From the sequence record OQ708376.1: a DNA stretch of 64,000 bases, one strand, 5' to 3'. The DNA comes from Escherichia phage vB_EcoM_CRJP21. The notes beneath the pieces were generated by a model that saw only the letters and a list, made by a program, of their open reading frames with translations, searched no databases and was not told the DNA's origin. This document shows positions 17,665-58,801 of this stretch, piece after piece. Each line of letters opens with the position of its first letter. Position 1 is the first letter of the stretch. The position numbers and the translations under genes were made by a program.

Positions 17665-18093
17665 ATGAATATCGAACAAACTATCCGTGAACATTCTTTC
17701 TTCGCTCCAGAAACTGGTCGTGTTATTGAGAGCGTCAAAATCGAAGAACTAATGGTCAATGTTAAATACAAAGAACCAAATGATGAGATTAGCAGTACTT
17801 TTTGTGCTCTACGTGCACCATTCCGTAATGAAAAAGCTAAGAAACCAGCATATGTTCTTGCCATTGCACTGGGTTGTGTTGTAAAACTTGCAGTTGATGA
17901 AAATCTTCTGAATATTAAAGTTGCACCAAGCAATGACGATGAAAACATTGATTTGAACTTTGATGGTTCTCTTGATGAAGATGTATTTTTCCAACAGTCA
18001 CTTGTTTACGACTTCCGTACAGTGACACATTCTCACATCAAGTTCATTAATGAAATGGTTGAGATTGTTGCTGAATACGAAGAATCTCTCTAA
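17665..18093 (+). CDS. FFQxS-motif paralog family member
   Basis: Motif instance DEDVFFQQSLVYD near the C-terminus; RBS AAGGAA. Confidence 0.6.
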   Translation: MNIEQTIREHSFFAPETGRVIESVKIEELMVNVKYKEPNDEISSTFCALRAPFRNEKAKKPAYVLAIALGCVVKLAVDENLLNIKVAPSNDDENIDLNFDGSLDEDVFFQQSLVYDFRTVTHSHIKFINEMVEIVAEYEESL

Positions 18094-18103
18094 GTAAATA
18101 CAA

Positions 18104-18128
18104 AAGCCTCCATTATGGAGGCTTTTAT
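18104..18128 (+). terminator. Intrinsic terminator
   Basis: AGCCTCC-ATTAT-GGAGGCT hairpin followed by TTTTAT. Confidence 0.5.
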
Positions 18129-18146
18129 CACATAAGGAAATGAAAT

Positions 18147-18698
18147 ATGATAGACCAAATTAAAATCCTTACAAAGCAAATCACTGATTTTCTTTCTGAT
18201 AAAGATGGATTTAATACAGAAGTAAAAATGCACGGTGTTAGTGTTGATGTAATTGCACCAAATGGTAATGTAACAAGTTACGACATGTATGAATTACTTC
18301 TTTATACTCTAGCAGTACGTAAACTAGGTAGTGATATTGAACTCAATATCAATACTGATGAAAGTGGGAATAAAATTTTTGCAATCAACACCAGTGCTAA
18401 ATTCGATATCAGTACTGAAATTAAAAAAATAAATGAAAGTTTTATTGGCTTTAAGCATGAATCAATTCAAAGTGTTTTTATTGGAAAGCAAACTTCTAAT
18501 AGTGAATGCCCATATTGTGTAATGACTTTATATAAAGATGGAAACTGGATGCGTCAAGATTTAGTATTTGCTGAACTTCTGTATGCATTTACACATGAAC
18601 TTAAAATCGAATTGGACGATAGTGTTTATTGCTTTAAGAAAATTCGAAATATAACTAAAGATATACAAACCCAACTTAAAGAATTAAATGATAAATAA
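18147..18698 (+). CDS. Hypothetical protein (183 aa)
   Basis: ORF with RBS AAGGAAA. Confidence 0.55.
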   Translation: MIDQIKILTKQITDFLSDKDGFNTEVKMHGVSVDVIAPNGNVTSYDMYELLLYTLAVRKLGSDIELNINTDESGNKIFAINTSAKFDISTEIKKINESFIGFKHESIQSVFIGKQTSNSECPYCVMTLYKDGNWMRQDLVFAELLYAFTHELKIELDDSVYCFKKIRNITKDIQTQLKELNDK

Positions 18699-18814
18699 AT
18701 ATACCAGAAATGGTTAACATATCATGTTACTTTCCTCCCTTACATAATAATGATGCGTTATTATATTTTCATTTTGTTCTTATTCCCCTTTTGGTACAAA
18801 ATCATTTTAGTACT

Positions 18815-18840
18815 GCCCCGATCTTCGGGGCATTTTTCTT
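18815..18840 (+). terminator. Intrinsic terminator
   Basis: GCCCCGA-TCT-TCGGGGC hairpin followed by ATTTTTCTT. Confidence 0.6.
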
Positions 18841-18858
18841 ATCTAAAATTGAGGATAT

Positions 18859-19254
18859 ATGAAGAACAATATTGGAACTTCAATAATTAAACCACTTTCT
18901 TATTACCTTGAAAAATTTAGAAGCACAAATGGTAATAAATTTAATAATATATTTCAGTTCTCTCATAAAGAATATATTACAATTGATCATTTTTCAAAGA
19001 AACTAATGTATGTAAATGATAATAGTCATATTATTAAATTATCATTCGATATTGAGTTAGATAAATTAACATTTACGGAATACATTAATCAAAAAACTTC
19101 TTTTTTATGTCAATACAATAGGAAAGTATATAGTAATATTTCTATGTATCTAAATGATGAATATCACTTTCAACAATCTACAATAGAAGAAGTATTGTTC
19201 AGTACTGAAGAATTAAAAGAACTATATTACTGGTATAATTATTTCACATCTTGA
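18859..19254 (+). CDS. FFQxS-motif paralog family member
   Basis: Motif instance NDEYHFQQSTIEE; first gene of a six-gene tandem array. Confidence 0.6.
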   Translation: MKNNIGTSIIKPLSYYLEKFRSTNGNKFNNIFQFSHKEYITIDHFSKKLMYVNDNSHIIKLSFDIELDKLTFTEYINQKTSFLCQYNRKVYSNISMYLNDEYHFQQSTIEEVLFSTEELKELYYWYNYFTS

Positions 19255-19309
19255 CATTATTGTGGGTTTATCCTACAATACATGATGATGCTGCATTGAG
19301 GATAAATTT

Positions 19310-19720
19310 ATGAGTTTAGATTTACACAATGAACTAAAATATTTTTTAGATTTGGACATATCAGAATTGAACCACCACGTCAATCATATGACTAGTACTG
19401 TATGGTGGTCTAATGATCAAGACGACCCAATTATCCAACTAAGTGATGAATCGTCAATTATGCGATTTTATAAGATTAATTATAAAAAGAACATCAAGAT
19501 CACATATGTACCATACAAAAACATACTACTAGTCGAAACACTTAATCCAAGTTCTTTATTAAAAATCACCGATTTAGATACATTACAAACAAGTGAATCT
19601 TTATTCCAACGTTCATTAGTTGATGATCTTGGTGGTATTACTTTTGAAGATATATTACAATTGAAGAATATGTATAGTGAATTGTTGGAGATTAAAAACA
19701 CTTTAGTAATGGGGAATTGA
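19310..19720 (+). CDS. FFQxS-motif paralog family member
   Basis: Motif instance TSESLFQRSLVDDLGGITFEDI. Confidence 0.6.
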   Translation: MSLDLHNELKYFLDLDISELNHHVNHMTSTVWWSNDQDDPIIQLSDESSIMRFYKINYKKNIKITYVPYKNILLVETLNPSSLLKITDLDTLQTSESLFQRSLVDDLGGITFEDILQLKNMYSELLEIKNTLVMGN

Positions 19721-19721: not shown

Positions 19722-20126
19722 ATGGTAAGTTTACTAGATATTGATAATACCAGTTTAGTGCTGGTGAAAAAAGGTTTAATTCCAAATTCTAAAAAAATTG
19801 ATTATGCTGTTATTGAAACAAATATTGGAAATATCTGGTACGACTCTGAAAGGGATATTGTGTTTAGCTGTGTAGACAGTGATCGTTCTGAATGTTGTAG
19901 AGTCGGTCATGACGGACAATTTGTTTTTGAATTTCGTTATTGGAAGGACGCAAAATTTCACCAAGAACTGGTTGCTTTGTCAAATGAACTATATACAGAA
20001 GAATCGTTCTTCATGGCTAGTACTATTAATGATTTTGGTTCAGTTACATTTGAGTACTATAAAAAAATATACGCACTATCCAGAGAAGTTATGAAAATTA
20101 TCAGAACTGCTGAAGGTAAAGAATAA
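19722..20126 (+). CDS. FFQxS-motif paralog family member
   Basis: Motif instance TEESFFMASTINDFGSVTFE. Confidence 0.6.
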   Translation: MVSLLDIDNTSLVLVKKGLIPNSKKIDYAVIETNIGNIWYDSERDIVFSCVDSDRSECCRVGHDGQFVFEFRYWKDAKFHQELVALSNELYTEESFFMASTINDFGSVTFEYYKKIYALSREVMKIIRTAEGKE

Positions 20127-20127: not shown

Positions 20128-20505
20128 ATGACTACTATATATGATATTTTGGGTGTTCTGAGTAGAAATATAGATGATGATTTTGTTATTGTTCAAGATA
20201 CTAGAAATACATTTCAACTACCAATAGGTTCACCAGATAGGTTAATTTTTAATAGATACTCAAATGAACTAACTTACATCCATGATGGGATTGCAATTGT
20301 ATCAGTTTCTATAAACGACTATACAATACGATATGTATATGACTTCAACGATTATTGTACAAGAATCCACAGTATTGATATTTCCGAAGAGGAACTATTC
20401 CAATTGTCATTGATTGAGAAAAATGTAATAGGAATTACAGAAATTGGTATTATTAAAAAAGCATTAAACTATACAAATATAAGAATTAATGGTGGGTGCA
20501 GATGA
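20128..20505 (+). CDS. FFQxS-motif paralog family member
   Basis: Motif instance SEEELFQLSLIEKNVIGITE. Confidence 0.6.
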   Translation: MTTIYDILGVLSRNIDDDFVIVQDTRNTFQLPIGSPDRLIFNRYSNELTYIHDGIAIVSVSINDYTIRYVYDFNDYCTRIHSIDISEEELFQLSLIEKNVIGITEIGIIKKALNYTNIRINGGCR

Positions 20506-20957
20506 ATGTTGACGAAATAAAAAATCATTTTGAAATTGCAATGTCATGTGAATTTGACACACAACGTGTTCATGACCCGAAAGAACATATACGCATTTGT
20601 TGTGAATTGTCAGATGATTGTAATATTTTTATTGGAAAAACCTATGACATGATCGATCTTTCATGTATAGATCCATTGGAAAGAAAAACAAAATATTTAT
20701 ATCTGTACAACACAACATCAGATACGATTGCAATACAACTAATATCAACCACAACATCCCACAGTTATTATAACATAACTGAGGTTAGTAGTTTAACGTT
20801 AACCGAAGAAGGATTCTTTCAACAATCGCTTATTCGTGAAATTGGTGTTAGTTATGATGAGTTAAATGTATTAGTAGATTGTTTCGAAAAATTGAGTACT
20901 TTTGTATTATCCCTTTTTAATATACAGTCGCAAAATCCAATGGTGGTGAAATGCTAA
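20496..20957 (+). CDS. FFQxS-motif paralog family member
   Basis: Motif instance TEEGFFQQSLIREIGVSYDEL. Confidence 0.6.
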   Translation: MQMNVDEIKNHFEIAMSCEFDTQRVHDPKEHIRICCELSDDCNIFIGKTYDMIDLSCIDPLERKTKYLYLYNTTSDTIAIQLISTTTSHSYYNITEVSSLTLTEEGFFQQSLIREIGVSYDELNVLVDCFEKLSTFVLSLFNIQSQNPMVVKC

Positions 20958-21391
20958 ATCCAAGTAAATTTCTCCACTTACTTTCGATAACATCAATACC
21001 GGATCTTACCAGTGAAACTAATGAATATCGTGAAGCTGGGGTGGTGTCTATGGAACTCGATACATTTGACCACAAATGCTATGTGACATATGACCCACCG
21101 CGTTATGGTAAAGAACATTCTTCTTTTATTTTTGTATTCGTATACACTGTATATGATAATACAACACTTGATGATGTTTGTATTGACACTTACGAAATTT
21201 GTGATAATATCATAACTGATGACAACAATAACTCATTTGATATGTCACTATATAACACAGAAGAATCGTTGTTTCAACTTAGTACTGTTATTGATGCACC
21301 ATCATTAGAAGATATAAAACAATTTCAAGAACATCTTGACGCAGTTCGTGAGATGTTCTATAATCATTATCCAGAAGTAGAGTTCAATTAA
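20951..21391 (+). CDS. FFQxS-motif paralog family member
   Basis: Motif instance TEESLFQLSTVIDAPSLEDI. Confidence 0.6.
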   Translation: MLNPSKFLHLLSITSIPDLTSETNEYREAGVVSMELDTFDHKCYVTYDPPRYGKEHSSFIFVFVYTVYDNTTLDDVCIDTYEICDNIITDDNNNSFDMSLYNTEESLFQLSTVIDAPSLEDIKQFQEHLDAVREMFYNHYPEVEFN

Positions 21392-22048: not shown

Positions 22049-22909
22049 ATGAAACCTATCCGAGTACTTTCTCTTTTTAATGGAATGAGTGTGGGATATA
22101 TGGCATTGCAAGATGCTGGTATCCCAGTTGAAAAATATTATTCATCCGAAATTGACAAGTACGCAATAGCTGAATCTCAAGCTAACTTTCCTGATATTAT
22201 CCAATTGGGTGATGTAACTAAGTGGAGAGAATGGGATATTGAGTGGGATAAAATAGATTTATTAATGGGTGGTTTCCCATGTCAAGCCTGGTCAGTTGCA
22301 GGTAAACAGGGTGGTTTAAATGATATACGTGGGCAGTTATTTTTAGTAATGGTTGAAATTTTTGATCATATCAAAAGTCTCAATCCTAACTTGAAATTTC
22401 TGTTTGAAAATGTTAAAATGAAGGAAGATTTCAAAGAATACATTAATAGTATTTTAGGAATCACGCCAGTACTGATAAACTCCCAGCATTATACGCCTCA
22501 CTTCAGGCAGAGATATTACTGGTACAGTACTGATAAGCTTTTTATACCACCTGCATTATCCAATGCACCTAAACTTCAAGATATTATTGAAGATGGTTGG
22601 TACACTGACAGAACCGCTTCGTACTGTATAGATGCTAACTATTTTAAAGGTGGTGATTGTAACCAGTACTTTAATAAATCCAGACGACAATTGGTGTTTC
22701 GTGACCCAGTGATCAGTCGTCAATATCTATTAGAGAATGGCAAAAGAAATATTGACTATAGACACTTAAGTGTAGTAGAATGTTGTAAATTACAGGGTGT
22801 TCCTGAAGATTTCTTTAAAGTGTCTAGTAAGACACAAGCATACAAAATGCTTGGGAATGGATGGACTATGCCAGTTATATCACATTTACTAAGAGAGATA
22901 TTCTTTTGA
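22049..22909 (+). CDS. DNA (cytosine-5)-methyltransferase
   Basis: Motif I LFNGMSVG, motif IV GFPCQAWS (catalytic PCQ), motif VI FENV, motif VIII FRQRYYW, motif X LGNGWTMPV; 286 aa. Confidence 0.8.
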   Translation: MKPIRVLSLFNGMSVGYMALQDAGIPVEKYYSSEIDKYAIAESQANFPDIIQLGDVTKWREWDIEWDKIDLLMGGFPCQAWSVAGKQGGLNDIRGQLFLVMVEIFDHIKSLNPNLKFLFENVKMKEDFKEYINSILGITPVLINSQHYTPHFRQRYYWYSTDKLFIPPALSNAPKLQDIIEDGWYTDRTASYCIDANYFKGGDCNQYFNKSRRQLVFRDPVISRQYLLENGKRNIDYRHLSVVECCKLQGVPEDFFKVSSKTQAYKMLGNGWTMPVISHLLREIFF

Positions 22910-23397: not shown

Positions 23398-23420
23398 ATC
23401 CACGCATTGCGTGGATTTTT
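23398..23420 (+). terminator. Intrinsic terminator
   Basis: ATCCACGC-ATT-GCGTGGAT hairpin followed by TTTT. Confidence 0.65.
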
Positions 23421-23433
23421 CATAGGTGCATAT

Positions 23434-23949
23434 ATGCCAATTCCTTATGTTAAAATTATTAATAATATTCTCGATTCATGGGAAGATGTTATTACTGGTA
23501 AAAAGCAACCATCACCAGTACATGCTTTATCTGGGAAACTTCAATTCAGAATGTCAAACCAAACTGAAACATTTAATAATCATGATATTTGCATTACATT
23601 AAAAACACCTATTAGTATTGTAATTAAAAAAAATAAAGATGATGAATTGACATTATCTATTGGTCGTGATAAAATCATTTTAAGTAATTTGTCTGAAGAA
23701 GAATTCTTTCAAAGAAGTACTATTATCGATATGAAAGATTTCACATATGAATCATTGGTTGAACTCAATACACGTTTTAACGATATTCAGGAACGATTGC
23801 GACCAATTCTTCGTATCGAAGAAGAAGCCTGGATTGAAAGTATTAGGAAGATGCAAGAAATGTTGAAAGAAAATATTAACAATCTGGGTAAAGCTACAAT
23901 GGAATTTGGTAAAACTTTTAAACTGAACTTTTCAAAGGATCGTAAATGA
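23434..23949 (+). CDS. FFQxS-motif paralog family member
   Basis: Motif instance SEEEFFQRSTIIDMKDFTYESL; track start 23407 is TTG inside the terminator, so ATG 23434 was used. Confidence 0.55.
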   Translation: MPIPYVKIINNILDSWEDVITGKKQPSPVHALSGKLQFRMSNQTETFNNHDICITLKTPISIVIKKNKDDELTLSIGRDKIILSNLSEEEFFQRSTIIDMKDFTYESLVELNTRFNDIQERLRPILRIEEEAWIESIRKMQEMLKENINNLGKATMEFGKTFKLNFSKDRK

Positions 23950-24401
23950 AAATTGATAATTTGATTCATGTTTTAGGATCTTTACATAAAATATTATCAC
24001 ATCTACATGAGATAAAGAAACTGGGATATAACATCTCAAATTCAATTGAAACTACATTTAAATATCAATCAATTACTGGTGATGGTTATTACATAATCGA
24101 ATATACCTATGAAACCGATCCAGACTTCTATCCTCTTACGTTGAGAATTTATCCAACAAATCCGAGAGGAATTCACGACATATCATCAATTTCACTTGAT
24201 CCAGATGGTGAAACGAGTATTGAATACAATAATGATTCAAAACCAGAATTTTACATTGATGATATTAAAATGATGTTCAACGATGAATATGTGTTCCAGC
24301 AAAGTACTGTGCATGATGTTGGAAGTACTAATGGACAATTTTGGAATACATGTTATTATCATATGATTGAAATTTGTAAATTACTAAAAGGCGATGATTA
24401 A
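23946..24401 (+). CDS. FFQxS-motif paralog family member
   Basis: Motif instance NDEYVFQQSTVHDVGST. Confidence 0.6.
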   Translation: MKIDNLIHVLGSLHKILSHLHEIKKLGYNISNSIETTFKYQSITGDGYYIIEYTYETDPDFYPLTLRIYPTNPRGIHDISSISLDPDGETSIEYNNDSKPEFYIDDIKMMFNDEYVFQQSTVHDVGSTNGQFWNTCYYHMIEICKLLKGDD

Positions 24402-24784
24402 TGAAATACAGCATTGAAGTACATTATACTACAGGGGACACTGAAAATTGTTATGACGTTCTTAATACAATTGATATTCAATGGTCTTCTAAAGAGGAAG
24501 CAGTTGCTGCTTTACAGTGCCTAAAAGAGCATTGGGTGTTTTATATGAAGCAAGATAATTGCTATACTAAAGAACACGAAACTATCGTTGAAAATGCTAA
24601 ACAAAAAGAGTGGTTTGACCCAATATCACCAGAATATTCATTCTTGGTTAAAGTTGGCGATGTGACAGTTCCATTACGAACACCGTGGAACGGCTACTTT
24701 GAAACTCTTCATAATGCACGAGTTGTCGCTGTTGATAATCCTGAGCAAATCGATTTCGATTCATTGGACTGGAAAAAACTATGA
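24401..24784 (+). CDS. Hypothetical protein (127 aa)
   Basis: ORF overlapping the upstream stop (TAATG). Confidence 0.5.
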   Translation: MKYSIEVHYTTGDTENCYDVLNTIDIQWSSKEEAVAALQCLKEHWVFYMKQDNCYTKEHETIVENAKQKEWFDPISPEYSFLVKVGDVTVPLRTPWNGYFETLHNARVVAVDNPEQIDFDSLDWKKL

Positions 24785-25224
24785 CAGTACTGCACCAATT
24801 GAAGAAGGTTAAGCATCCAGTTGTATACGAGGATTGGAAACGACAGAAGTTGATGGGTGATTTTTATTTCCCAAAATCTAAAGTTCTTGCGAATTCAAGA
24901 TGTACATATGTCACACATAATGATAAAGATACAGTATTTGTTGAAATGGGTTTCAATCCATCAAATACAATGTTCAGTACTAACCAGACATTTTACAAAT
25001 TTCATATCCAAAAAGATTCATTTTCTATCATGATTTTAAAACTTTTAGTTGAAGATCTGCTATACCGTGGTGAACGTGTTCCTTTATCATTAGTGGATAT
25101 TCCTTATGATAATTTAGAGGAAATGTACTTCCAACAGTTGACAGTACAAGAAAACTTTGGTATGATAGGACTTCAAGAGTTAGAGATGATTAAGCAAATT
25201 CGTGATATCTACTTTAAGGAGTAA
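24781..25224 (+). CDS. FFQxS-motif paralog family member
   Basis: Motif instance LEEMYFQQLTVQENFGMIGLQEL. Confidence 0.55.
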   Translation: MTVLHQLKKVKHPVVYEDWKRQKLMGDFYFPKSKVLANSRCTYVTHNDKDTVFVEMGFNPSNTMFSTNQTFYKFHIQKDSFSIMILKLLVEDLLYRGERVPLSLVDIPYDNLEEMYFQQLTVQENFGMIGLQELEMIKQIRDIYFKE

Positions 25225-30046: not shown

Positions 30047-30616
30047 ATGAACTTTATTAAATTCAACACATATGAGTCAGAAGCATACTTTAATACAAAT
30101 AATAAATTTAATATTATTCTTAAAGACGGAACGGTTGTTATCGGAGTATCATTGCTTTCATTTGATGGCGAAAAACTCAAAACTGTTTATAAATTCACCA
30201 ATCTTGATGGTGATTACTGGGATACGTCAGATGTATCTAAAATTTGCACACATTATGTATTTGAATCTATTGAAGTTGGTGATGGCTGGGCATTGACCTG
30301 TAATGGTAATAAAGTATTTTCTGGTAACATATTTGGAGTAATTTCCAGTAAAGAAATCGTAGACCATCATCTTCATGTTCTCAATAATAACGCCAACACT
30401 TATACACCTGATAATATCAAAATTCACGATATTGTAACATATACTGATTATAATGGTTTCAGACATAAAGCAATCGTAACTGAAGTTAAAAAACCAAAAA
30501 ATTATTTAGACCACGGTTTAATTGAAGTATATATGGTAGGTGGCGAAAAACAATACTTTGATCATTTCACTTATACTGGTTGGGATAGATTCCTAACCGT
30601 TATTGAGGAATACTAA
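30047..30616 (+). CDS. Hypothetical protein (189 aa)
   Basis: ORF with RBS AAGGAGAA. Confidence 0.55.
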   Translation: MNFIKFNTYESEAYFNTNNKFNIILKDGTVVIGVSLLSFDGEKLKTVYKFTNLDGDYWDTSDVSKICTHYVFESIEVGDGWALTCNGNKVFSGNIFGVISSKEIVDHHLHVLNNNANTYTPDNIKIHDIVTYTDYNGFRHKAIVTEVKKPKNYLDHGLIEVYMVGGEKQYFDHFTYTGWDRFLTVIEEY

Positions 30617-30617
30617 C

Positions 30618-31106
30618 ATGCCGATTCGTGGTGTCCCAGAACCATTAATGGAAGTTATTAAGCATGTTCGCATTGGAGATCGAGAAGTTAATCTTCGCCG
30701 TAATAACATTTATTACTTTAAAACTTCAGAAATGAGTTCTGTGCAGATTGTCATTGGTACATCTATTAAGATTACTCGTGTACTTGATGGTAGTACTGAC
30801 TTCGTTGAATATAATGTACTTACTAATAAAGTAACGCATATATATAAATGGAGTGGGTATAAAACTATTAAGTATGAATTTGACTTAGCTAGAACTGAAG
30901 AAGAACGATTTATGCTGAGTACTATCAATCCAGCAAACTATCCCGATCTTGATGCATTTTTGCTAATTTTAAAATTGTATAATGAAGCAAATCAGAAAGC
31001 TAAAGAGTATGATAGAATCATGTATGAACGCCGAAAAGAACGTGCACAAAAAAGTTATGATCTGTATGATAGCCCATACGTGAAATATAGTAAGGGGTCG
31101 AAATGA
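30618..31106 (+). CDS. FFQxS-motif paralog family member (divergent)
   Basis: Motif instance TEEERFMLSTINPANYPDLDAF; start moved to ATG 30618 behind GAGGAA. Confidence 0.5.
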   Translation: MPIRGVPEPLMEVIKHVRIGDREVNLRRNNIYYFKTSEMSSVQIVIGTSIKITRVLDGSTDFVEYNVLTNKVTHIYKWSGYKTIKYEFDLARTEEERFMLSTINPANYPDLDAFLLILKLYNEANQKAKEYDRIMYERRKERAQKSYDLYDSPYVKYSKGSK

Positions 31107-31507
31107 ATAAAGAAGTTCAAATTATCATAACTCCACCTATACAAAGTCTGGATGTATCCATTAGTGATTTTTTGGAAAAATACTATGAATGGTTTAATGA
31201 AGATTCAGTAATTTATAACCATTCATTACCAGATGGTTTCGTGGAGCTTATCGAATTAAATTCAAAATCACTATACTTCTGTGTTGAATACAATGATTAT
31301 ATGACAGATGAAGCTTATCGCTTTCGTTGTACATTGTATCCGAATTATTTTTCAATAGGTTATAAAGATTACCAGTACTGTACCACTAACTATAGTGTTG
31401 AGGAAGAATTTCAGTACAATTTACTTTATCCTGATTTAGATTATACGATTGCAGTACTGTTGACTAAAATCATGGATTTTTATAAAGATAAATATAATGC
31501 AGCCTAA
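31103..31507 (+). CDS. FFQxS-motif paralog family member (divergent)
   Basis: Motif instance VEEEFQYNLLYPDLD. Confidence 0.5.
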   Translation: MNKEVQIIITPPIQSLDVSISDFLEKYYEWFNEDSVIYNHSLPDGFVELIELNSKSLYFCVEYNDYMTDEAYRFRCTLYPNYFSIGYKDYQYCTTNYSVEEEFQYNLLYPDLDYTIAVLLTKIMDFYKDKYNAA

Positions 31508-33461: not shown

Positions 33462-33875
<414 letters not shown>

Positions 33876-34921: not shown

Positions 34922-35471
<550 letters not shown>

Positions 35472-35824: not shown

Positions 35825-36250
35825 ATGACATACAACATTGTTAAAATGGTGAACTATGTATTAAAAAACAACGCATGGTCACTGCATGATGTACAATTAG
35901 AAGATATTGGTGAAGTTAGAGTATTTTGCTATGATCCAGATTTGAATCAAACCACAGATTTGAGTAAATGTTTTAATATTTTTCTTGGTTATGAATTCAA
36001 TAATCATTTTTATTCATTTGATGTGTATTTTGAAAAAGTTATATTCAGAAGTTATGAATGTGATAATGAAGATTATGATTATGATGATGAATCAATTGAA
36101 TTGAATGTTAACGATATTGATACTGAAGAAAAATTCTTCCAGTACTGCCTCCTTAACGACACATTAGGATTAACATTTGAGGACATTAAAGCTATACTTA
36201 AAGTTCAAAAGTTGATTCCAGAAGAGGTACTAAATCCATTAAATGACTAG
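35825..36250 (+). CDS. FFQxS-motif paralog family member
   Basis: Motif instance TEEKFFQYCLLNDTLGLTFEDI. Confidence 0.6.
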   Translation: MTYNIVKMVNYVLKNNAWSLHDVQLEDIGEVRVFCYDPDLNQTTDLSKCFNIFLGYEFNNHFYSFDVYFEKVIFRSYECDNEDYDYDDESIELNVNDIDTEEKFFQYCLLNDTLGLTFEDIKAILKVQKLIPEEVLNPLND

Positions 36251-36608
36251 TCTAATAGTACGTATAATGCAAGATGTTTGTAATAACCTTTATACAGGCA
36301 ATTTTGACGATCCGAACATAAAAATATTATGTTATGATGGTTTTACAATGGTACATCCATCCTATTCAAATAATATCTACGTAGCATATACAGGTGAAAA
36401 TCTATTGTATCAATTTGATATATATAGTACAATGACAAAGATAATTTTGGATGCCTCTAAACCAGCAATCTTTATTGCTTCTCATGATTACCATTACACT
36501 GAAGAATCACTATTTCAGTACTCAATGATTAATGACATTGGTGGGTTGACATTGGATGAGGTTAATGCTATACTAGCTGTCTCACGTTTGGTTAAAACCC
36601 ACAATTAG
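36243..36608 (+). CDS. FFQxS-motif paralog family member
   Basis: Motif instance TEESLFQYSMINDIGGLTLDEV. Confidence 0.6.
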   Translation: MTSLIVRIMQDVCNNLYTGNFDDPNIKILCYDGFTMVHPSYSNNIYVAYTGENLLYQFDIYSTMTKIILDASKPAIFIASHDYHYTEESLFQYSMINDIGGLTLDEVNAILAVSRLVKTHN

Positions 36609-37309: not shown

Positions 37310-37327
37310 CTTATATAGGTGAATGCA

Positions 37328-37747
37328 ATGAGTTATTTGTTTACTTTAATTGATAAGTATGTTGACATTGTATACCGTCAAGTTTGTAGTGATACGTTTG
37401 AAACAAAAAACCCAATTAGAGATGGCATTTTTGATGTTGTCGTTGGATCATTTTTGAATGGATACACCGAGACATTATACAACAGTAATAATATTTTTAT
37501 TTCAGTTCAATCCAGACATACATCAGACTATGCTGTTAGCATTGATATTTGGGAAAATAATATAGAAATAGATATAACGGAACATACTAACATTCATGTT
37601 GATGATACATTTAATCAATTAACTGAAGAAATGTACTTGCAGTTGAATTTTGTACATAATCTTACAAATATCAGTTATGATACATTAAGGAAAATATGTT
37701 TTCTTAGTGGGGTGATCCGTAGTAATATGAGTAAGGATGGGAAGTGA
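37328..37747 (+). CDS. FFQxS-motif paralog family member (divergent)
   Basis: Motif instance TEEMYLQLNFVHNLTNISYDTL; track start 37319 is GTG, so ATG 37328 behind AGGTGA was used. Confidence 0.5.
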   Translation: MSYLFTLIDKYVDIVYRQVCSDTFETKNPIRDGIFDVVVGSFLNGYTETLYNSNNIFISVQSRHTSDYAVSIDIWENNIEIDITEHTNIHVDDTFNQLTEEMYLQLNFVHNLTNISYDTLRKICFLSGVIRSNMSKDGK

Positions 37748-37748
37748 A

Positions 37749-38165
37749 ATGTTAAAAATTCCACCTAAGTCGTTAACACATCTTATTGAATGTGGTGTAA
37801 TATTTTCCGAAGGTGATACCTCATCATACACATTGGTCGATGAGCCTTATAATTTTTCATACCAATCTTATAAAAATAATTCTAAAATTTCTTGTAGATA
37901 TGCTGAAAACATATTAATAGATGTTTCGTTACATAATGTTCCGAAATTTTACATTGATATCTTTGGTGATTCTTTGACAATTCGAACATATGATTATTTT
38001 ATTAATAAAGACCTCTTGAGTCTTCCAATTGAACATGATACTATAGATTCAGAGATGTTCTTTCAACTATCAACAGTTTACGATTTACAGGGTTTAACTG
38101 TTGAGCAGTTGAATGGAATATTTGAGATTTCACGAAACATACGAAGCAGGAATAAAAATGTCTAA
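37749..38165 (+). CDS. FFQxS-motif paralog family member
   Basis: Motif instance DSEMFFQLSTVYDLQGLTVEQL; start ATG 37749 coupled to the upstream stop. Confidence 0.55.
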   Translation: MLKIPPKSLTHLIECGVIFSEGDTSSYTLVDEPYNFSYQSYKNNSKISCRYAENILIDVSLHNVPKFYIDIFGDSLTIRTYDYFINKDLLSLPIEHDTIDSEMFFQLSTVYDLQGLTVEQLNGIFEISRNIRSRNKNV

Positions 38166-38568
38166 TATTTTAAATGAAAAAACAGTTGATGTTGTTATTG
38201 GTGTTCTTAACACCGCAACTTCATTTCAGAAGAAACACAGTGTTGTATACTTTGGTGAAGATTGTTGGCTGAACTATACTAATAATTCGTTTATAATTCG
38301 TGTAGAGGCTGATGATATTGGATTAACCGTTCAGGTAGGATGTGCCAAAACTGACAAACAAATCACTGTCATTGTTGATAAACTTACGTCTTCTTTTTAT
38401 GATAGTATAGATGATTGTGAACACTATAGTTCAACATTTTATGATACAGAAGAAGAACATTTTATGGAAAGTACTGTTCAAGAGTTAGCTATTCCATATA
38501 AGCTAATGAAAGCAGTGAGTGATTTAATTTTAAAATATAAAAAAATAGGAGTTACTAATGCAATTTAA
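38158..38568 (+). CDS. FFQxS-motif paralog family member (divergent)
   Basis: Motif instance TEEEHFMESTVQELAIPY; start moved to ATG 38158 behind AGGAA. Confidence 0.5.
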   Translation: MSNILNEKTVDVVIGVLNTATSFQKKHSVVYFGEDCWLNYTNNSFIIRVEADDIGLTVQVGCAKTDKQITVIVDKLTSSFYDSIDDCEHYSSTFYDTEEEHFMESTVQELAIPYKLMKAVSDLILKYKKIGVTNAI

Positions 38569-52473: not shown

Positions 52474-52674
52474 ATGTTTACTTTATATCTCGCAGTAGTT
52501 CTCACCAATGGTGAAATCACTCGTACTATTGGTGAAGGTGTATATAAAACACCAGACCAGTGCTACTCTGCCACTCATTGGCCTCGCGATAGTGGGGATG
52601 AAACTCGCACTGAATTCAAATGCATGAAAGTAAAAGGTGATTTTGTTAACCTTAAGGTTATCGAGGCGAAATAA
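52474..52674 (+). CDS. Small protein with hydrophobic N-terminus (66 aa)
   Basis: Track 52417..52674; start moved to ATG 52474 behind TAAGGCGAA. Confidence 0.45.
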   Translation: MFTLYLAVVLTNGEITRTIGEGVYKTPDQCYSATHWPRDSGDETRTEFKCMKVKGDFVNLKVIEAK

Positions 52675-53192
52675 TGGATATTAATGAGTTGTTGAAATTA
52701 GTGTTTAATCGTGAACGCCGCGATACAAGACCAATTGAATATCAAGATGTGATACGCATTGAAACTGATTTCTGTTATGGTAAAACAACTCATGACCTTT
52801 TGAATCTCTCTGGAAAACGCTATGCTGATGTTTGTTTTTCAGAGAGAAGTGATGGTTCAGAAATAACGAGTACTGATATTGTTTGTTACGCACGCAGTGC
52901 TGATAAATCTTATGAAATAGAACTTATATATTCCCCTAGTTCTAAAACAAATCATCACCGCCATATTTTATATGATGTTTACACACCACCTGGTATTGCT
53001 GAATATTTTGTTATTGATTATAGTACTGAAGAAAATGTGTTTCAACAAAGTTTGATTCATAACTTTGAGGTGAATGATCCATTAGTACCAAAGTTGTTCA
53101 AACTACTTGACACCATCGATGTTGATTTTGAATTTGTTATGTGCATTAGAACTTCTTTATTCAATGAATTCATGGAACTTTTTAATATATGA
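52674..53192 (+). CDS. FFQxS-motif paralog family member
   Basis: Motif instance TEENVFQQSLIHNFEVNDPL. Confidence 0.55.
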   Translation: MDINELLKLVFNRERRDTRPIEYQDVIRIETDFCYGKTTHDLLNLSGKRYADVCFSERSDGSEITSTDIVCYARSADKSYEIELIYSPSSKTNHHRHILYDVYTPPGIAEYFVIDYSTEENVFQQSLIHNFEVNDPLVPKLFKLLDTIDVDFEFVMCIRTSLFNEFMELFNI

Positions 53193-53872: not shown

Positions 53873-54535
53873 ATGTTAGTTAATCTTAATTTCATCACTT
53901 CACCTGACTGGGCATTACGTGGAGTTTCTTTAAACTTCAAGGAAACTATGTTTGACTACATTGGTGAGTGTACATTGGTAAATGCAACTTTTGATCCAAA
54001 TCATCCGTTTTGGGCTGAAATTCATGATCCAAATGTAAACAACAATACATCTGTTATGACTATTGTCCAGACTAAACATGCAGGTATCCTTGCAGGTTAT
54101 CGACCTGCACATGCAATTGAACACTTCACTGATTACGATGTCGTGGATGAATACCCAATGATCCATGAAGATGGAAGTCTATACACATCTGAAGACTTCC
54201 GTGCTATCTTTAATAGTACTGATGATATTCTACCAAGTGGACGTCCACGTCCTGAGTCTTATCTTATGCATCCATCTTATGGTGTAGCAGATACGCTTGA
54301 ACAGATTATGAATAAGTACAAGAACCTAATTGAAGGTCCAGAAGAAATTGTCCTGTGCTATCACCCAGTACTGAAGTCTGAACAACCAAAGGATGGTGGA
54401 TGGCGTTGGCATAAGAATGGTGAGTATATCGGTACTAAACGAAGTAAAGAACGTTTTGAGTACTTGTATGATGAGCCAGATGTTGATGTGGTTTTGTGTT
54501 ATAATTTTATTAAGGTGAAAAAGAAATGTATCTAG
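53873..54535 (+). CDS. Hypothetical protein (about 220 aa)
   Basis: Track 53855..54535 begins at TTG; start moved to ATG 53873 behind TGAGGATA. Confidence 0.5.
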   Translation: MLVNLNFITSPDWALRGVSLNFKETMFDYIGECTLVNATFDPNHPFWAEIHDPNVNNNTSVMTIVQTKHAGILAGYRPAHAIEHFTDYDVVDEYPMIHEDGSLYTSEDFRAIFNSTDDILPSGRPRPESYLMHPSYGVADTLEQIMNKYKNLIEGPEEIVLCYHPVLKSEQPKDGGWRWHKNGEYIGTKRSKERFEYLYDEPDVDVVLCYNFIKVKKKCI

Positions 54536-54768
54536 TACTAAGTTTTGTTGTTGCACTATTGTTTATGTTCTATCCTACACTAGTGGCATTAGCCACTAGA
54601 CGAACGATGGTAGATCTCACTACTGTATTCTTGCTAAACGTGGCATTAGTACTGGTGTCTATTATCATTCCAGTGAGCTTTACAGTTATTGATATTATTT
54701 CGGTATTACTCTTCGTGTTAAGTTATCTTATGCTTATTGAAGAAACAAATGTTGACAAACGTTCGTAG
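54526..54768 (+). CDS. Small membrane protein (80 aa)
   Basis: Two TM helices (LVLSFVVALLFMFYPTLVALA, LLNVALVLVSIIIPVSFTVIDIISVLLFVL). Confidence 0.5.
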   Translation: MYLVLSFVVALLFMFYPTLVALATRRTMVDLTTVFLLNVALVLVSIIIPVSFTVIDIISVLLFVLSYLMLIEETNVDKRS

Positions 54769-54779
54769 TACTGTATAAT
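54752..54779 (+). promoter_or_regulatory. Sigma-70-type early promoter with GTACTG spacer motif
   Basis: TTGACA-AACGTTCGTAGTACTG-TATAAT-GGTT. Confidence 0.6.
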
Positions 54780-54825
54780 GGTTCCTGTAGTCTGAAACTT
54801 AACACTTAAACTTGAGGTAAAAAAT

Positions 54826-55152
54826 ATGCTATCAGTACTAATTTCAATTCCGTCTTTAATTCTGATTTGGCTTCTGGTTTACGAATGCTTTATTACTGAT
54901 GATAATGATAAAAAAGAGTTCTCTGAGTTGTTTATGCTTGATTCACCGATTGTGCGTATTTTCTATACAGTAGTTGTGGTTTCAGTAATTGTATGGGTTT
55001 TGAGTTTTATCTTCCCACTCGGTGCAGTAGTTAAAACTTTGGATTTAGTTGAGAACTTTGTTGCAATTATGTGGCTAATCAAAGCACTATTTGCAGGAAA
55101 TGTTAAAATTTGGATTGATATTATCAAATTCAAGTTCACGAATAAGATGTAA
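54826..55152 (+). CDS. Membrane protein (108 aa)
   Basis: Multiple hydrophobic helices (VLISIPSLILIWLLV, FYTVVVVSVIVWVLSFIF). Confidence 0.5.
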   Translation: MLSVLISIPSLILIWLLVYECFITDDNDKKEFSELFMLDSPIVRIFYTVVVVSVIVWVLSFIFPLGAVVKTLDLVENFVAIMWLIKALFAGNVKIWIDIIKFKFTNKM

Positions 55153-55230
55153 CAGTGAAAATATCTCTATAGTATTAAATACTTCTGTACATATATATAG
55201 TACAGAAGTATTTCTCGTTAGAGGTTTGTT

Positions 55231-55590
55231 ATGAAGAGTTATATAAAATTAATAGCACTTGTGTGTGCATTATTTTCATGTTTTAGTTATGGTGCAGCAG
55301 CAGAAACATATTGTCGTAGTACTAAGGGAACGTGGCATGTATTGACTAACGACCCTAGAAATGGTAAAAATATAGTTGTTGATGGTGTGATTTATCGTTT
55401 TAAAGTAGAAAGTATTATCGGTAATAAAAAAATCTCGACTTATAGAGATGATTCTGGTACATTAGCAAACGTAATATTAATTGTAGACCCAAGAACTGGT
55501 AATGGTGATATCTATATAGTAATTTACTTGGACTCATCGGTACGCCGTGACCTAGATATAGATAAATTGAACTTACACTGTGAAATATAG
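55231..55590 (+). CDS. Secreted protein (119 aa)
   Basis: Signal peptide MKSYIKLIALVCALFSCFSYGAAAE. Confidence 0.55.
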   Translation: MKSYIKLIALVCALFSCFSYGAAAETYCRSTKGTWHVLTNDPRNGKNIVVDGVIYRFKVESIIGNKKISTYRDDSGTLANVILIVDPRTGNGDIYIVIYLDSSVRRDLDIDKLNLHCEI

Positions 55591-55601
55591 GACTTAAAAA
55601 A

Positions 55602-55979
55602 ATGGTAAACACTATTTTACTTTTGTTGTTGAATATTCCAATTATTCTGTCTTTTTTAATTTCTATTTTTATGGCAGGATATTGTTTAGTTGCAGTAATT
55701 CATTTCATTTTAACAAACAAATATGTCCTAATTTCTAAGCTTGATTCTATTTTTGCTTGCGATTCGATTGCTTATAACTTGTGGTTAATTTGTTCTTGCA
55801 TTATGGGAGTAACTTTCCTTCTGTATGTATTTGATGTCCTTGACCAAAAGTTCGTATACATCAGTACTGGATTGGCTCTTTATCCTGCTACGTGGTACTT
55901 GATTTACGTTGGTGATATATGGTATAGTACTTATAAAGAATATCAGTACAAGAAATCACTTAACGTTGGAGGAAAATAA
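55602..55979 (+). CDS. Membrane protein (125 aa)
   Basis: Hydrophobic helices (ILLLLLNIPIILSFLISIFMAGYCLVAVI, LWLICSCIMGVTFLLYVF). Confidence 0.5.
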   Translation: MVNTILLLLLNIPIILSFLISIFMAGYCLVAVIHFILTNKYVLISKLDSIFACDSIAYNLWLICSCIMGVTFLLYVFDVLDQKFVYISTGLALYPATWYLIYVGDIWYSTYKEYQYKKSLNVGGK

Positions 55980-55981
55980 TC

Positions 55982-56332
55982 ATGAAAATTATTTTATTTT
56001 TTGTATGTATGTTAATGTGTGGATTGTCATATGCTGAACCATTGGAAGGTTTAGTTTGTACAGATGGTAATATTAAACATATCTATCAAGGTGATAGTGA
56101 CGATCGAGATATTGTATATATTGATGGACAATCATATACGTTTGTTAAAGAGCATACAGTAGGCGACATTAGCTTCACTGAGTTTTCTAACGACACAGAC
56201 CCTAACTTCTTAGCGTTTATTGAAGTAGATGTATATGAAGATAGTAATGGCACACAATATGCTAAATTAGTTATGATGCGTCGTGGTGCTAAAGAAACTA
56301 GTTTTGGTGGCTTGTGTAAATATAAGGATTGA
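55982..56332 (+). CDS. Secreted protein (116 aa)
   Basis: Signal peptide MKIILFFVCMLMCGLSYA. Confidence 0.55.
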   Translation: MKIILFFVCMLMCGLSYAEPLEGLVCTDGNIKHIYQGDSDDRDIVYIDGQSYTFVKEHTVGDISFTEFSNDTDPNFLAFIEVDVYEDSNGTQYAKLVMMRRGAKETSFGGLCKYKD

Positions 56333-56582: not shown

Positions 56583-57023
56583 ATGTATGTATATCGTTTT
56601 GAACTTAAATTCAGTTACATTGAACCTAACTTAGAACCTGCACGAACTGTAGGTCCGTTTGCACGGTATTCAACCAGATACAGTACTAAAAATGGATTTG
56701 ACCGTTTGCTTATGACTACACCTTCTCAATTCCAACCTGAACCAACTGAGGATGGGATCTATTCAATCAAAAGTGGATGGGTATTTGGCTGTCAAAGTTT
56801 GAAAGATTTGTTCAGATTCTTCACTATGGACTTGGGTAAATTGCATCGTGCTGGGTTTGCTATATCTGTATATGAAGTTCCAGACCACCATGTAGACATT
56901 GGTCGTAATCAGGTTCAGTACTATTGCGGTAGTGCTAAATTAGTTCGTATCATGTCAGTTAAGGAAGCAAAGGATGAGTTCCGACAAAGTAAAAGAGAAA
57001 CACATGAGGTAATATATGGATAA
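56583..57023 (+). CDS. Hypothetical protein (146 aa)
   Basis: ORF with RBS AGAGGATT. Confidence 0.55.
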   Translation: MYVYRFELKFSYIEPNLEPARTVGPFARYSTRYSTKNGFDRLLMTTPSQFQPEPTEDGIYSIKSGWVFGCQSLKDLFRFFTMDLGKLHRAGFAISVYEVPDHHVDIGRNQVQYYCGSAKLVRIMSVKEAKDEFRQSKRETHEVIYG

Positions 57024-57360
57024 AACTCAAATAGAATTAAAGAAATTTGTTTCATTCTATCTTCCTGATGACCCACGTAATTCACAAAAAGATATTGAAT
57101 ATTATAATATCCTATCTAAACAGTTAATGAGAAAGTTTCAACAGTGTTTAACTATATTCAATACAGATGGAAGACGTAGATACCGAATCGTTTCAATGAA
57201 TGATGAAAACGCAAATTTCTTTGATTACGATGTAGTTTTTAGAGCATATAATGATGATCGTATAAAATTAAATTATGATCAAATTATACTTGACCTGAAT
57301 GTTATATGTGTTATAATCACTCACGTAGCCGAACTTAATGGTTTTAAAGAATGGTATTGA
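57016..57360 (+). CDS. Hypothetical protein (114 aa)
   Basis: ORF overlapping the upstream stop. Confidence 0.5.
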   Translation: MDKTQIELKKFVSFYLPDDPRNSQKDIEYYNILSKQLMRKFQQCLTIFNTDGRRRYRIVSMNDENANFFDYDVVFRAYNDDRIKLNYDQIILDLNVICVIITHVAELNGFKEWY

Positions 57361-57374
57361 ATAGAGGATAACAT

Positions 57375-57641
57375 ATGAAGCTTAAATTACAATATAATGG
57401 ATTTACTTTACGTAATGATACTGAATTTATTAATCGTTCTCCTGGTGCTGAACTGTTTTTACGAGAGATGAACATTCCTTTCATCATTACTACAGTGGGC
57501 GACCGTGAAGTTCTACAATATGCAGAGCATCCGATTATTGATGTTCCTTGGTACTCTGAGCATATGTACATGGATATGGCACGTCGCTACAACTGTAAGT
57601 TCGTAGTTGAAGGTGATAAAATTACAGTCGAATTTAAATAA
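57375..57641 (+). CDS. Hypothetical protein (88 aa)
   Basis: ORF with RBS AGAGGATAA. Confidence 0.5.
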   Translation: MKLKLQYNGFTLRNDTEFINRSPGAELFLREMNIPFIITTVGDREVLQYAEHPIIDVPWYSEHMYMDMARRYNCKFVVEGDKITVEFK

Positions 57642-57653
57642 GGTAAATTAAAA

Positions 57654-57947
57654 ATGATCAGTACTTCAGTTAATGAAAGCATCGTCGCTGACGTAGAAAT
57701 GGTTAAAGAATGTGCAGATGAAACTCTTCGTGATATGTACATTAATGATTTAATTACTGAATACGGTAGTCGTGGTGTACACGAATTTATTCGTTTAAGT
57801 GGAGAGTTGATGAAAAATCGAATTCGTATGAAGCTTAACGTACATCCAAAAGCATGGGCATTTACATTAAAATACGCAGAAGATATTGTTAATTTGCGTC
57901 GAACTGAAGTATATGAACGTTTGCACAATGGTATGTTAGATAAATGA
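57654..57947 (+). CDS. Hypothetical protein (97 aa)
   Basis: ORF with RBS AAGGTAAA. Confidence 0.5.
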   Translation: MISTSVNESIVADVEMVKECADETLRDMYINDLITEYGSRGVHEFIRLSGELMKNRIRMKLNVHPKAWAFTLKYAEDIVNLRRTEVYERLHNGMLDK

Positions 57948-57999
57948 TTGTAAAATAGGAATTCTTAAATGAATTCCTTTTTGTTTATAAGGTATAGTA

Positions 58000-58221
58000 A
58001 TGAAATATATAGTACTTGTACTGATATTATTCAGTACTGTTGTAAGTGCTAAACAAAAAGAATATGTTAAATGTATAAATTATGAAGAGAAATATGTTGA
58101 AACATATAAAAAAAGTATAATTAAAAACGTTTCGATTACTAACAGAGCAACAATCATTGTACTTAAAAATGGGTTAATTATGCTATATAAACCACACGTT
58201 AAATGTGAAATTATTAATTGA
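58000..58221 (+). CDS. Small secreted protein (73 aa)
   Basis: Signal peptide MKYIVLVLILFSTVVSA. Confidence 0.5.
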   Translation: MKYIVLVLILFSTVVSAKQKEYVKCINYEEKYVETYKKSIIKNVSITNRATIIVLKNGLIMLYKPHVKCEIIN

Positions 58222-58228
58222 GGAAATT

Positions 58229-58801
58229 ATGAATCGTAAAGGTCGTTTTAAAGTATCAAAAAAGAACAAAAGTTCTAGGTTTAAACCTATTGTTTTAACA
58301 GTTAAATCTAACAAAGATTTAACTGCACTTAGTAAAAAGATAATTTCATCTAAGATTGAAGTATCATACGTAAATTCATTAAAATATATGAATGTCAAAC
58401 CACTGGACCAACTCATTTCACTTATATTTGAACGTAATGATTTTGAGATATCAGTAGATGATTATAGAGCCTATAATGCTGGTTTCATTAATGTTACTTG
58501 TAATAAAAAACTAACTGAGTTGGAAAATTTGTCATGTATAATAAATCTAGATAAAGGTGTTGTGAAGTACCATTTTGTACATTTCACTAATATCAATAAT
58601 GGAATGGGTGTACAATCCAGACCTATAGTGCCTACGTGTGATGTTACTAAATTAGCAAAGCTCAATGATGAAGAATATTTTCAAGAAAGCATTGTAACTG
58701 AGCATTTAGATGATATAATAGCTACTTACAAAGAATGCATATGGGTGTTGAATGCTATAAAACCTAAATTGTGTTTAATGAATATTGTTCGTGATTTATG
58801 A
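58229..58801 (+). CDS. FFQxS-motif paralog family member (divergent)
   Basis: Motif instance NDEEYFQESIVTEHLDDI; start moved to ATG 58229 behind TGAGGAAA. Confidence 0.5.
   Translation: MNRKGRFKVSKKNKSSRFKPIVLTVKSNKDLTALSKKIISSKIEVSYVNSLKYMNVKPLDQLISLIFERNDFEISVDDYRAYNAGFINVTCNKKLTELENLSCIINLDKGVVKYHFVHFTNINNGMGVQSRPIVPTCDVTKLAKLNDEEYFQESIVTEHLDDIIATYKECIWVLNAIKPKLCLMNIVRDL

Follow-up and report, generated by a model that had tools for sequence, protein, structure and literature searches.

This report concerns a 64,000-nt stretch of Escherichia phage vB_EcoM_CRJP21 (OQ708376.1), hereafter the window, in which twenty genes spread over positions 17,665–58,801 encode small proteins with a common C-terminal motif. 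Nucleotide comparison of positions 17000–39000 gave a 99.3% match to Escherichia phages vB_EcoM_G17 and Sharanji and matches of 97–98% to PBECO4, phAPEC6, JP4 and others. As G17 and phAPEC6 belong to the genus Asteriusvirus, the source of the window is, judged by its sequence, a jumbo coliphage of the PBECO4/G17 type (Asteriusvirus), whose relatives are 350–370 kb jumbo myoviruses of the RaK2/121Q group. The G+C content of the window is ~32–35%, and the + strand holds nearly all of its genes.

Twenty divergent paralogues share a C-terminal motif

An original prediction had singled out twenty open reading frames (ORFs) for a recurrent C-terminal module. We recovered all twenty at the expected places on the + strand, and each contains the motif [TSDN]-[ED]-E-x-h-F-[QM]-x-[SNC]-[TL]-[VIL] at 32–84 residues from the C-terminus. 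A MAFFT alignment of the proteins resolves a C-terminal block whose core is [TS]-E-E-x-h-F-Q-x-S-[TL]-[VI]; the stretch that trails it, described beforehand as G-x-T-x-E-x-[IL], is present in a looser form, h-x-x-h-[TSD]-x-[LYF]-[ED]-[DE]-h. With 20 of the 133 non-nested + strand ORFs (15%), the family does account for about one in seven genes of the window.

Because a profile always matches its own training set, we built leave-one-out hidden Markov models (HMMs) of the C-terminal module and scored them against the 265 six-frame ORFs of the window. Nineteen of the twenty members were retrieved at 13–41 bits (E ≤ 1e-3) and the best non-member never rose above 8.1 bits, with one member, at 31103, marginal at 7.2 bits. 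A profile iterated on a related complete genome retrieved all twenty at 25–44 bits, the next window ORF scoring 4.5 bits, and matched nothing in reversed or shuffled ORF sets. The motif is therefore statistically supported by leave-one-out and iterated profiles with clean controls. Two additional ORFs proposed as possible members did not hold up, since no profile supports them: the ORF at 29607 reached 5.4 bits (E = 0.27), that at 14642 gave no match, and neither was found with the iterated profile. The former, which contains SEEDEFQKNT, may be a decayed relative and was left out of the count.

For each member we give its coordinates on the + strand, the motif with its nucleotide positions, and the leave-one-out C-terminal HMM score followed by the iterated-profile score, in bits. 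The first, of 142 amino acids (aa; 17665..18093; DEDVFFQQSLV, 17974–18006; 18.4/33.5), has a syntenic RaK2-like orthologue at 48% identity. It is followed by proteins of 131 aa (18859..19254; NDEYHFQQSTI, 19153–19185; 27.9/32.1), 136 aa (19310..19720; TSESLFQRSLV, 19589–19621; 30.7/37.7), 134 aa (19722..20126; TEESFFMASTI, 19995–20027; 39.8/44.0), 125 aa (20128..20505; SEEELFQLSLI, 20383–20415; 15.5/27.0), 153 aa (20496..20957, the start annotated in relatives being 20502; TEEGFFQQSLI, 20802–20834; 30.5/35.7) and 146 aa (20951..21391; TEESLFQLSTV, 21257–21289; 25.2/38.2). Downstream lie a 180-aa member with a 50-aa C-terminal extension and a likely start at 23434, giving 171 aa (23407..23949; SEEEFFQRSTI, 23692–23724; 25.6/36.9), and members of 151 aa (23946..24401; NDEYVFQQSTV, 24279–24311; 25.2/38.3) and 147 aa (24781..25224; LEEMYFQQLTV, 25114–25146; 13.0/30.4). 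A 167-aa protein with a basic C-terminal extension (30603..31106, likely start 30618; TEEERFMLSTI, 30894–30926; 17.8/30.8) precedes the most divergent member, of 134 aa (31103..31507; SVEEEFQYNLL, 31394–31426; 7.2/25.0), and one of 117 aa (33522..33875; TEEEYFQMSTV, 33768–33800; 29.9/38.7). Then come members of 141 aa (35825..36250; TEEKFFQYCLL, 36122–36154; 31.5/38.6), 121 aa (36243..36608; TEESLFQYSMI, 36498–36530; leave-one-out 40.6; modelled with AlphaFold2), 142 aa (37319..37747, likely start 37328; TEEMYLQLNFV, 37622–37654; 15.6/39.8), again 142 aa (37737..38165; DSEMFFQLSTV, 38046–38078; 36.0/37.5) and 151 aa (38113..38568; TEEEHFMESTV, 38446–38478; 20.9/34.1). Two isolated members complete the set, one of 172 aa (52674..53192; TEENVFQQSLI, 53025–53057; 22.5/32.0) and one of 198 aa with a basic, predicted disordered N-terminus and a likely start at 58229, giving 190 aa (58205..58801; NDEEYFQESIV, 58664–58696; 13.9/36.2). 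A mechanical ORF list offers upstream alternative starts for six members (23407/23434, 30603/30618, 37319/37328, 37737/37749, 38113/38158 and 58205/58229).

Outside the C-terminal block the paralogues have diverged strongly: leave-one-out HMMs of the N-terminal parts performed no better than noise among the twenty members, and BLASTP between window paralogues reached E < 1e-3 in only 9 of 190 pairs, with a maximum identity of 32%. Searching with a single member by tblastn finds a single locus in nearly every genome. The family has been overlooked until now because its paralogues share only a short helix and BLAST is blind to most pairs.

The family extends across Enterobacterales jumbo phages

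A profile of the C-terminal block, searched against 1.84 billion cluster representatives, matched 167 clusters (50% identity) at E ≤ 1e-3; the 150 of these that were listed are all 62–222 aa long with the block near the C-terminus. A full-length profile gave just 31 matches in a set of 5.8 billion proteins because its alignment consists mostly of gaps, which makes the C-terminal profile far more informative. None of the ten longest relatives is a domain fusion.

The original prediction had suggested looking for the family in related phage genomes, and it is there in greater number than in the window. Iterating the profile over all ORFs of EC22.5-2 (OR845138.1; 351,992 bp), an unannotated close relative, yielded 56 members of ~105–220 aa that share one strand; reversed and shuffled ORF sets yielded none. 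Twenty match the window members, 31 form a second dense cluster ~60 kb past the window end (57087–85036 in EC22.5-2) and five are scattered (26660, 98219, 138931, 151756 and 152341). Many proteins of the second cluster have a different tail after the motif (e.g. SEEYYFQQSTVYDDEVLDVIIIMWYF), and a few closer pairs reach 58% identity. An additional motif-bearing ORF of this genome (319070–319453) scored 17 bits with the first profile and fell below threshold in the iterated one. The RaK2-like Klebsiella phage OU509535.1 has 40 members in the same two-cluster layout, again with a clean control. Since related phages have 551–593 predicted genes (PMC7247149, PMC11895373), 56 members amount to about a tenth of the gene content.

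With two divergent metagenomic representatives as queries, tblastn found relatives in jumbo phages of Salmonella (Munch, 7t3), Klebsiella (fENko-Kae01, RaK2, K64-1), Escherichia (EJP2), Pectobacterium (CBB), Cronobacter (GAP32), Yersinia (fHe-Yen9-04) and Erwinia (pEa_SNUABM_47/49). The family appears to be restricted to RaK2/121Q-like jumbo phages of Enterobacterales.

The motif is predicted to form a conserved helix within a single domain

AlphaFold2 (AF2) modelling of the 36243–36608 product (121 aa), from an alignment of orthologues and paralogues, returned a confident single domain with a predicted local distance difference test score (pLDDT) of 89.7 and a predicted template modelling score of 0.84. 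An N-terminal helix (residues 4–15) is followed by five antiparallel strands and two helices (87–96 and 104–114). The first of these coincides exactly with the motif EESLFQYSMI, with Thr86 before it as the N-cap. The 58229–58798 product (190 aa), modelled from a shallow alignment, reached pLDDT 80–93 over residues 64–176, which form a six-strand meander, a short helix, the motif helix (147–156) and a further helix (160–176); its first 43 residues are lysine-rich and predicted to be disordered. The two proteins share ~15% identity, one is acidic and the other basic, and yet both models have the topology of a β-meander, the motif helix and a second helix. The motif segment is helical in both, with pLDDT 86–94, which bears out the suggestion that the C-terminal module forms a conserved helix.

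A Foldseek search of BFVD matched nothing but uncharacterised proteins from this phage group, several of them over most or all of their length at 13–30% identity. Because the two AF2 models agree and these paralogue matches span most or all of the length, the family is, on modelling grounds, one diverged fold rather than a module grafted onto unrelated bodies. The initial picture of a conserved module on variable N-terminal regions is right in that no N-terminal sequence similarity is detectable, and needs revision in that the models predict a common single-domain fold.

Conservation within the motif is uneven. Among the 150 cluster representatives the two glutamates are kept in 140 and 142, the phenylalanine in 149, the glutamine in 132 (with methionine in the other 18) and the serine in 139. 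The glutamine is replaced essentially only by methionine (12% of representatives), and the serine rarely by Asn, Cys, Thr or Leu. The poorly conserved columns of the motif helix are 18, 22 and 26, an i/i+4/i+8 spacing that traces one stripe, and all other helix positions are conserved. From this periodicity we infer that the variable stripe faces solvent and that the rest of the helix is packed against the sheet and the neighbouring helices. The motif opens with [ST]-E-E-[E], which looks like a helix N-cap leading into an acidic first turn; a [TS]-x-x-E capping box stands at the start of the second helix, and the conserved region spans ~35 residues. As far as sequence can tell, this pattern of conservation speaks for a structural keystone more than for a docking peptide on the surface.

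The paralogues are old, individually retained and under purifying selection

Nei–Gojobori dN/dS against phage UE-S1 was 0.22 pooled over 18 members and likewise 0.22 for 31 neighbouring genes (p = 0.84). The members are real genes under purifying selection, and with this equality nothing specific to the family points to recent diversifying selection, a reading that we set aside. Over longer distances, a RaK2-like phage has counterparts of seven members (17665, 19310, 19722, 23946, 24781, 30603 and 38113) in conserved order, positional orthologues with 25–48% identity. Against that phage the members show a median identity of 28%, with full-length matches for 8 of 20, compared with 48% and 64 of 113 for the other window genes. 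Synteny across genera at such low identity implies that the expansion is older than the genus split. Each paralogue has been kept individually, and their long-term drift has been faster than that of neighbouring genes.

Most window genes are 96–100% identical to EC22.5-2, and a three-gene patch at 23946–25224, comprising two family members and the unrelated gene 24401–24784, has ~74% protein identity. Because the patch includes a non-family gene, it looks in sequence like a recombination or mosaic segment rather than family-specific variation.

Promoter context, charge and virion status

Near-consensus sigma-70 sites (TTGACA-N16–18-TATAAT, at least 11/12 matches) occur 31 times on the + strand and twice on the - strand of window positions 1–64000, compared with ~3 expected and a maximum of 6 in first-order Markov simulations. 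Most lie 30–50 nt upstream of a start codon, and three + strand sites precede members: TTGACA-17-TACAAT at 19251..19279 (11/12), 31 nt upstream of the member at 19310; TTGACT-16-TATAAT at 33463..33490 (11/12), 32 nt upstream of the member at 33522; and a perfect consensus, TTGACA-16-TATAAT, at 35415..35442 (12/12), upstream of tRNA-Thr (35735–35808) and the 35825–38568 block. In T4-type phages, a sigma-70 promoter context on the coding strand marks the early region read by host RNA polymerase. By this analogy the whole window looks like such an early region. The members form operon-like arrays on a single strand downstream of near-consensus sigma-70 promoters, so that early synthesis by host RNA polymerase is most likely. 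Many members touch the next gene or overlap it by a few bases, an arrangement that suggests co-transcription.

The twenty proteins have a median isoelectric point (pI) of 4.7 and a net charge of -9, compared with a pI of 5.8 and a charge of -1.5 for other ORFs of 100–200 aa; three members are basic and carry basic extensions. Anti-restriction DNA mimics of the Ocr/ArdA/Arn type have strongly acidic surfaces with the spacing of DNA phosphates; in this family most members are acidic and three are basic, and no fold match to known mimics was found.

The main block has 16 annotated counterparts in phAPEC6 (gp083c–gp134c). None is among the 62 proteins identified by mass spectrometry in the phAPEC6 virion, which include no gene product between gp078c and gp149c; gp078c and gp077 are the sole virion proteins detected from this part of the genome (PMC7247149). 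Their window counterparts are a 270-aa + strand ORF and a 384-aa - strand ORF at 40283–42292, the gp077 counterpart being one of very few window genes on the - strand.

Relation to known families

The impression that the family is uncharacterised stood up to database searches. No Pfam cut-off was reached by ten members or by the ten longest metagenomic relatives, and none of the twenty members matched NCBIfam. Among ten members scanned against PHROGs, nine matched a small family near full length, all labelled 'unknown function' (e.g. 24510, 17453, 21500, 38573, 30841, 28118, 33518 and 23322). Phrog_17453, best for two members, was the sole shared best match, and cross-matches between these PHROGs ran mainly through the C-terminal region. 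A profile search of PDB sequences gave no significant match (best E-value 0.0056, 19 bits over 16 residues of a designed repeat protein), and a fold search no significant fold relative; no characterised family emerged from Pfam, NCBIfam or PDB sequences. The p32/gC1qBP/Mam33 fold and the TipC2 immunity protein (PDB 3qv0, 7te3, 1yqf, 6dhx) are among the closest known systems named. Identity as a TipC2-type type VII secretion system immunity protein, for which we required significant similarity together with an adjacent cognate toxin, was rejected as that combination was not found. A β-clamp-binding motif (QL[SD]LF in a disordered tail) was likewise rejected: its position 2 is variable here, position 4 is T in 60% of representatives, position 5 is V/I/L and the segment lies within a predicted helix.

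The members are called hypothetical in every genome annotation inspected, and we found no description of the family in the accounts of Sharanji, UE-S1, CBB, RaK2, phAPEC6 and 121Q, in a 2026 jumbo-phage review, or in the passages available to us of the survey by Iyer et al. (PMC7824862). Nearly 10% of RaK2 products have been stated to be paralogues (PMC3622015), and 22 paralogous ORFs were reported for CBB (PMC5259590). Remarks on this phage group in PMC5646251 (2017) and PMC3622015 run to one sentence each, with no family definition, motif, structure or count. The window members (maximum 32% identity) are not 'very similar'. The remarks may partly refer to the second cluster outside the window, which may itself be the array of '>30 very similar genes' mentioned for phage 121Q.

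Iyer et al. (2021) call the ~35-copy zinc-ribbon expansion of phage G unprecedented (PMC7824862). It is likewise a very large small-domain expansion in one jumbo-phage genome whose function is only guessed, but the coliphage family has an unrelated fold without zinc ligands, is acidic, has more copies (56 and 40), and is shared and syntenic across several phage genera with paralogues that mostly escape BLAST.

Other comparisons are with better-known phage proteins. Arn, Ocr and AsiA of T4- and T7-type phages are small and often acidic, as the members are, and are early, cytoplasmic, non-virion and host-binding, as the members would be; they differ in being single-copy genes of unrelated folds, and we found no sequence or structural link. 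The internal proteins of T4 and the inner-body paralogues of phiKZ resemble the family as small paralogues of large myoviruses with a short conserved signal, but that signal is N-terminal and cleaved and the proteins are in virions, unlike the C-terminal, predicted helical motif here with counterparts absent from a virion proteome. The family is undescribed, a larger and much more diverged case of the lineage-specific small-protein expansions of jumbo phages.

Other features of the window

Seven tRNA genes (Gly, Ser x2, Arg, Met, Asn and Thr) lie at 32141–35808, mixed with small ORFs and family members; relatives have additional genes in this region, including an HNH endonuclease and the motif-bearing ORF at 319070–319453 of EC22.5-2. 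On either side of tRNA-Gly are two small paralogous ORFs (31919–32113 and 32438–32638; 64 and 66 aa), both beginning M-x-WIHKMTH-x-EW, a local duplication unrelated to the motif family. A C5-cytosine DNA methyltransferase gene (22049–22909) is 861 nt long compared with 1881 nt for the UE-S1 annotation (L020, 5045–6925), which points to a fusion, to an insertion or to differing annotation. At 48912–49932, a 262-aa ORF (an HNH endonuclease in the JP4 annotation) and the ORF preceding it have no close counterpart at that place in EC22.5-2; they probably represent a mobile homing-endonuclease insertion just 3' of the RpoD-like sigma factor gene (47089–48054). Several small ORFs at 51217–52105, 55231–56332 and 61587–62601 have N-termini resembling signal peptides or lipoboxes (e.g. 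...LLTAC, ...FLTAC, ...SYGA), and ORFs near them at 54526–55979 encode hydrophobic multi-pass proteins; a role in the envelope or in superinfection exclusion is possible for these.

A putative repertoire of host-directed binders

We favour a reading in which the twenty genes are paralogues within a single-domain family that is ancient, has expanded greatly and is very divergent. Its fold would be an antiparallel β-meander sheet backed by two C-terminal helices, and the motif [ST]-E-E-x-h-F-Q-x-S-[TL]-[VI] would be the first of these, largely buried and serving as the keystone of the fold: an N-cap and acidic N-terminus, an aromatic/Phe core, and a small Ser and a Gln packed on the sheet. Sheet and loops would have diverged past sequence recognition. 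The proteins, presumably made early by host RNA polymerase, would be cytoplasmic and unpackaged, the conserved helical hairpin providing a stable scaffold and the variable sheet face the specificity of target-specific binders or inhibitors of host proteins, for takeover and/or anti-defence. To this account, in which one scaffold carries an ancient repertoire of early-expressed proteins that bind or inhibit host proteins, we assign a probability of roughly 0.45. The original prediction had spoken of a diversifying host-takeover or anti-defence repertoire. The first part fits the early-promoter context, the acidity, the non-virion status and the fast long-term divergence; of ongoing diversification, a dN/dS of 0.22 gives no sign.

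Several points weigh against our reading. A literature search found no Asteriusvirus transcriptome. A dN/dS equal to that of neighbouring genes gives no short-range arms-race signature. Near-invariance of E, E, Q and S (132–142 of 150) goes beyond the usual demand of a purely structural role, leaving room for a shared ligand or partner site at the polar residues.

In one competing explanation the helix would serve, through E-E, Q and S, as a common docking site or active surface for a single factor of phage or host origin (for instance a protease, RNA polymerase or modifying enzyme), while the variable part brings different cargos or targets. The polar positions are indeed the most conserved (E 140, E 142, Q 132 and S 139 of 150) as the hydrophobic ones vary within their class, and the motif holds across genera where the rest of the protein drops to ~28% identity. 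Such an adaptor is nevertheless unlikely: the stripe predicted to be exposed (columns 18, 22 and 26) is where the helix varies, both models place the motif within a single, confidently folded domain, the Q-to-M exchange in 12% of representatives suggests packing rather than specific hydrogen bonding, and no candidate partner was identified. The earlier idea of a docking, packaging or targeting element on diversified bodies is unsupported on similar grounds, since AF2 predicts one compact domain, a solvent-facing variable stripe is the opposite of an exposed docking peptide, and 0 of 16 counterparts are in the phAPEC6 virion. The same polar residues could instead form a ligand site in a small-molecule- or metal-binding family, such as a nucleotide sponge for immune signalling or an unrecognised enzyme. 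Their near invariance would suit this, as would the small size, acidity and putative early timing that recall known sponge-type anti-defence proteins, and there is no known fold relative to speak against ligand binding. We consider it very unlikely, as a single ligand would not call for 40–56 copies per genome that are maintained, syntenic and highly diverged, there are no conserved residues beyond the helical hairpin that could complete a pocket, and no enzyme or sponge family shows similarity.

A role inside the phage programme, in which the proteins regulate or chaperone replication, the assembly of the hairy virion or a transcription switch that involves the phage sigma factor, would agree with the behaviour of the paralogues, which like core accessory genes are conserved, keep their synteny and evolve under purifying selection. 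It would also agree with the phage RpoD-like sigma factor gene in the same region (47089–48054) and with the transcription-factor role that Iyer et al. suggested for the phage G expansion (PMC7824862). The strong acidity of most members argues against DNA binding, however, no counterpart is in the virion, and cross-genus divergence exceeds that of neighbouring genes. An early-promoter context is moreover typical of host-directed genes in T4-type phages, and we rate this role as improbable, a little below the adaptor. A processing or packaging signal has hardly any claim. The motif superficially resembles E-x-x-[YF]-x-Q (P6, P3, P1), L or I occupies P3 of an L/I-x-E site in ~43% of members, and phAPEC6 has a T4-like prohead protease and inner body (PMC7247149). 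But none of the proteins is among the 62 of the virion, the motif is predicted with confidence as a helix within a domain, S falls at P2' rather than P1', and the ~35-residue conserved region far exceeds what a cleavage site needs. T4 targeting sequences are also N-terminal and the motif is C-terminal. Of the specific candidates, we rejected a site of the tobacco etch virus (TEV)/NIa type (E-x-x-Y-x-Q|S), given S at P2', a variable P1' and a predicted helix in place of an accessible extended segment, and a T4-type capsid-targeted internal protein with a gp21-type L/I-x-E| site, given absence from the virion, the C-terminal motif and L/I at -2 in only ~43%. Chance motif recurrence or non-coding ORFs have a negligible probability: no point in their favour was found, and clean reversed and shuffled controls, members confined to the coding strand and annotated as coding sequences in many genomes, a dN/dS of 0.22 and a confident AF2 model all speak against them.

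The repertoire of host-protein binders that we favour has a bolder and more doubtful form, a library with a fixed keystone helix and scaffold and a hypervariable sheet, in which each of the 40–56 paralogues, maintained since ancient times, neutralises a different host factor or defence system. Making up ~10% of all genes, the family would exceed every paralogous family so far recognised in phage genomes. It would then account for much of the ORFan content of RaK2/121Q-like jumbo phages, and perhaps for the breadth of host range reported for CBB.

More than 80% of the genes in the 350-kb phages of this group lack an assigned function, and about a tenth now belong to one family with a predicted common fold and a diagnostic motif, in a copy number above that of the ~35-copy phage G expansion. 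Dozens of ORFans thereby become one tractable problem, with one structure, one mutational logic and one design of interaction screen. If the proteins have a single shared partner instead, that partner would be a central node of jumbo-phage infection. If they are target-specific inhibitors, they would be a rich source of new anti-defence and host-shutoff proteins, directly useful since phages of this group are considered for therapy.

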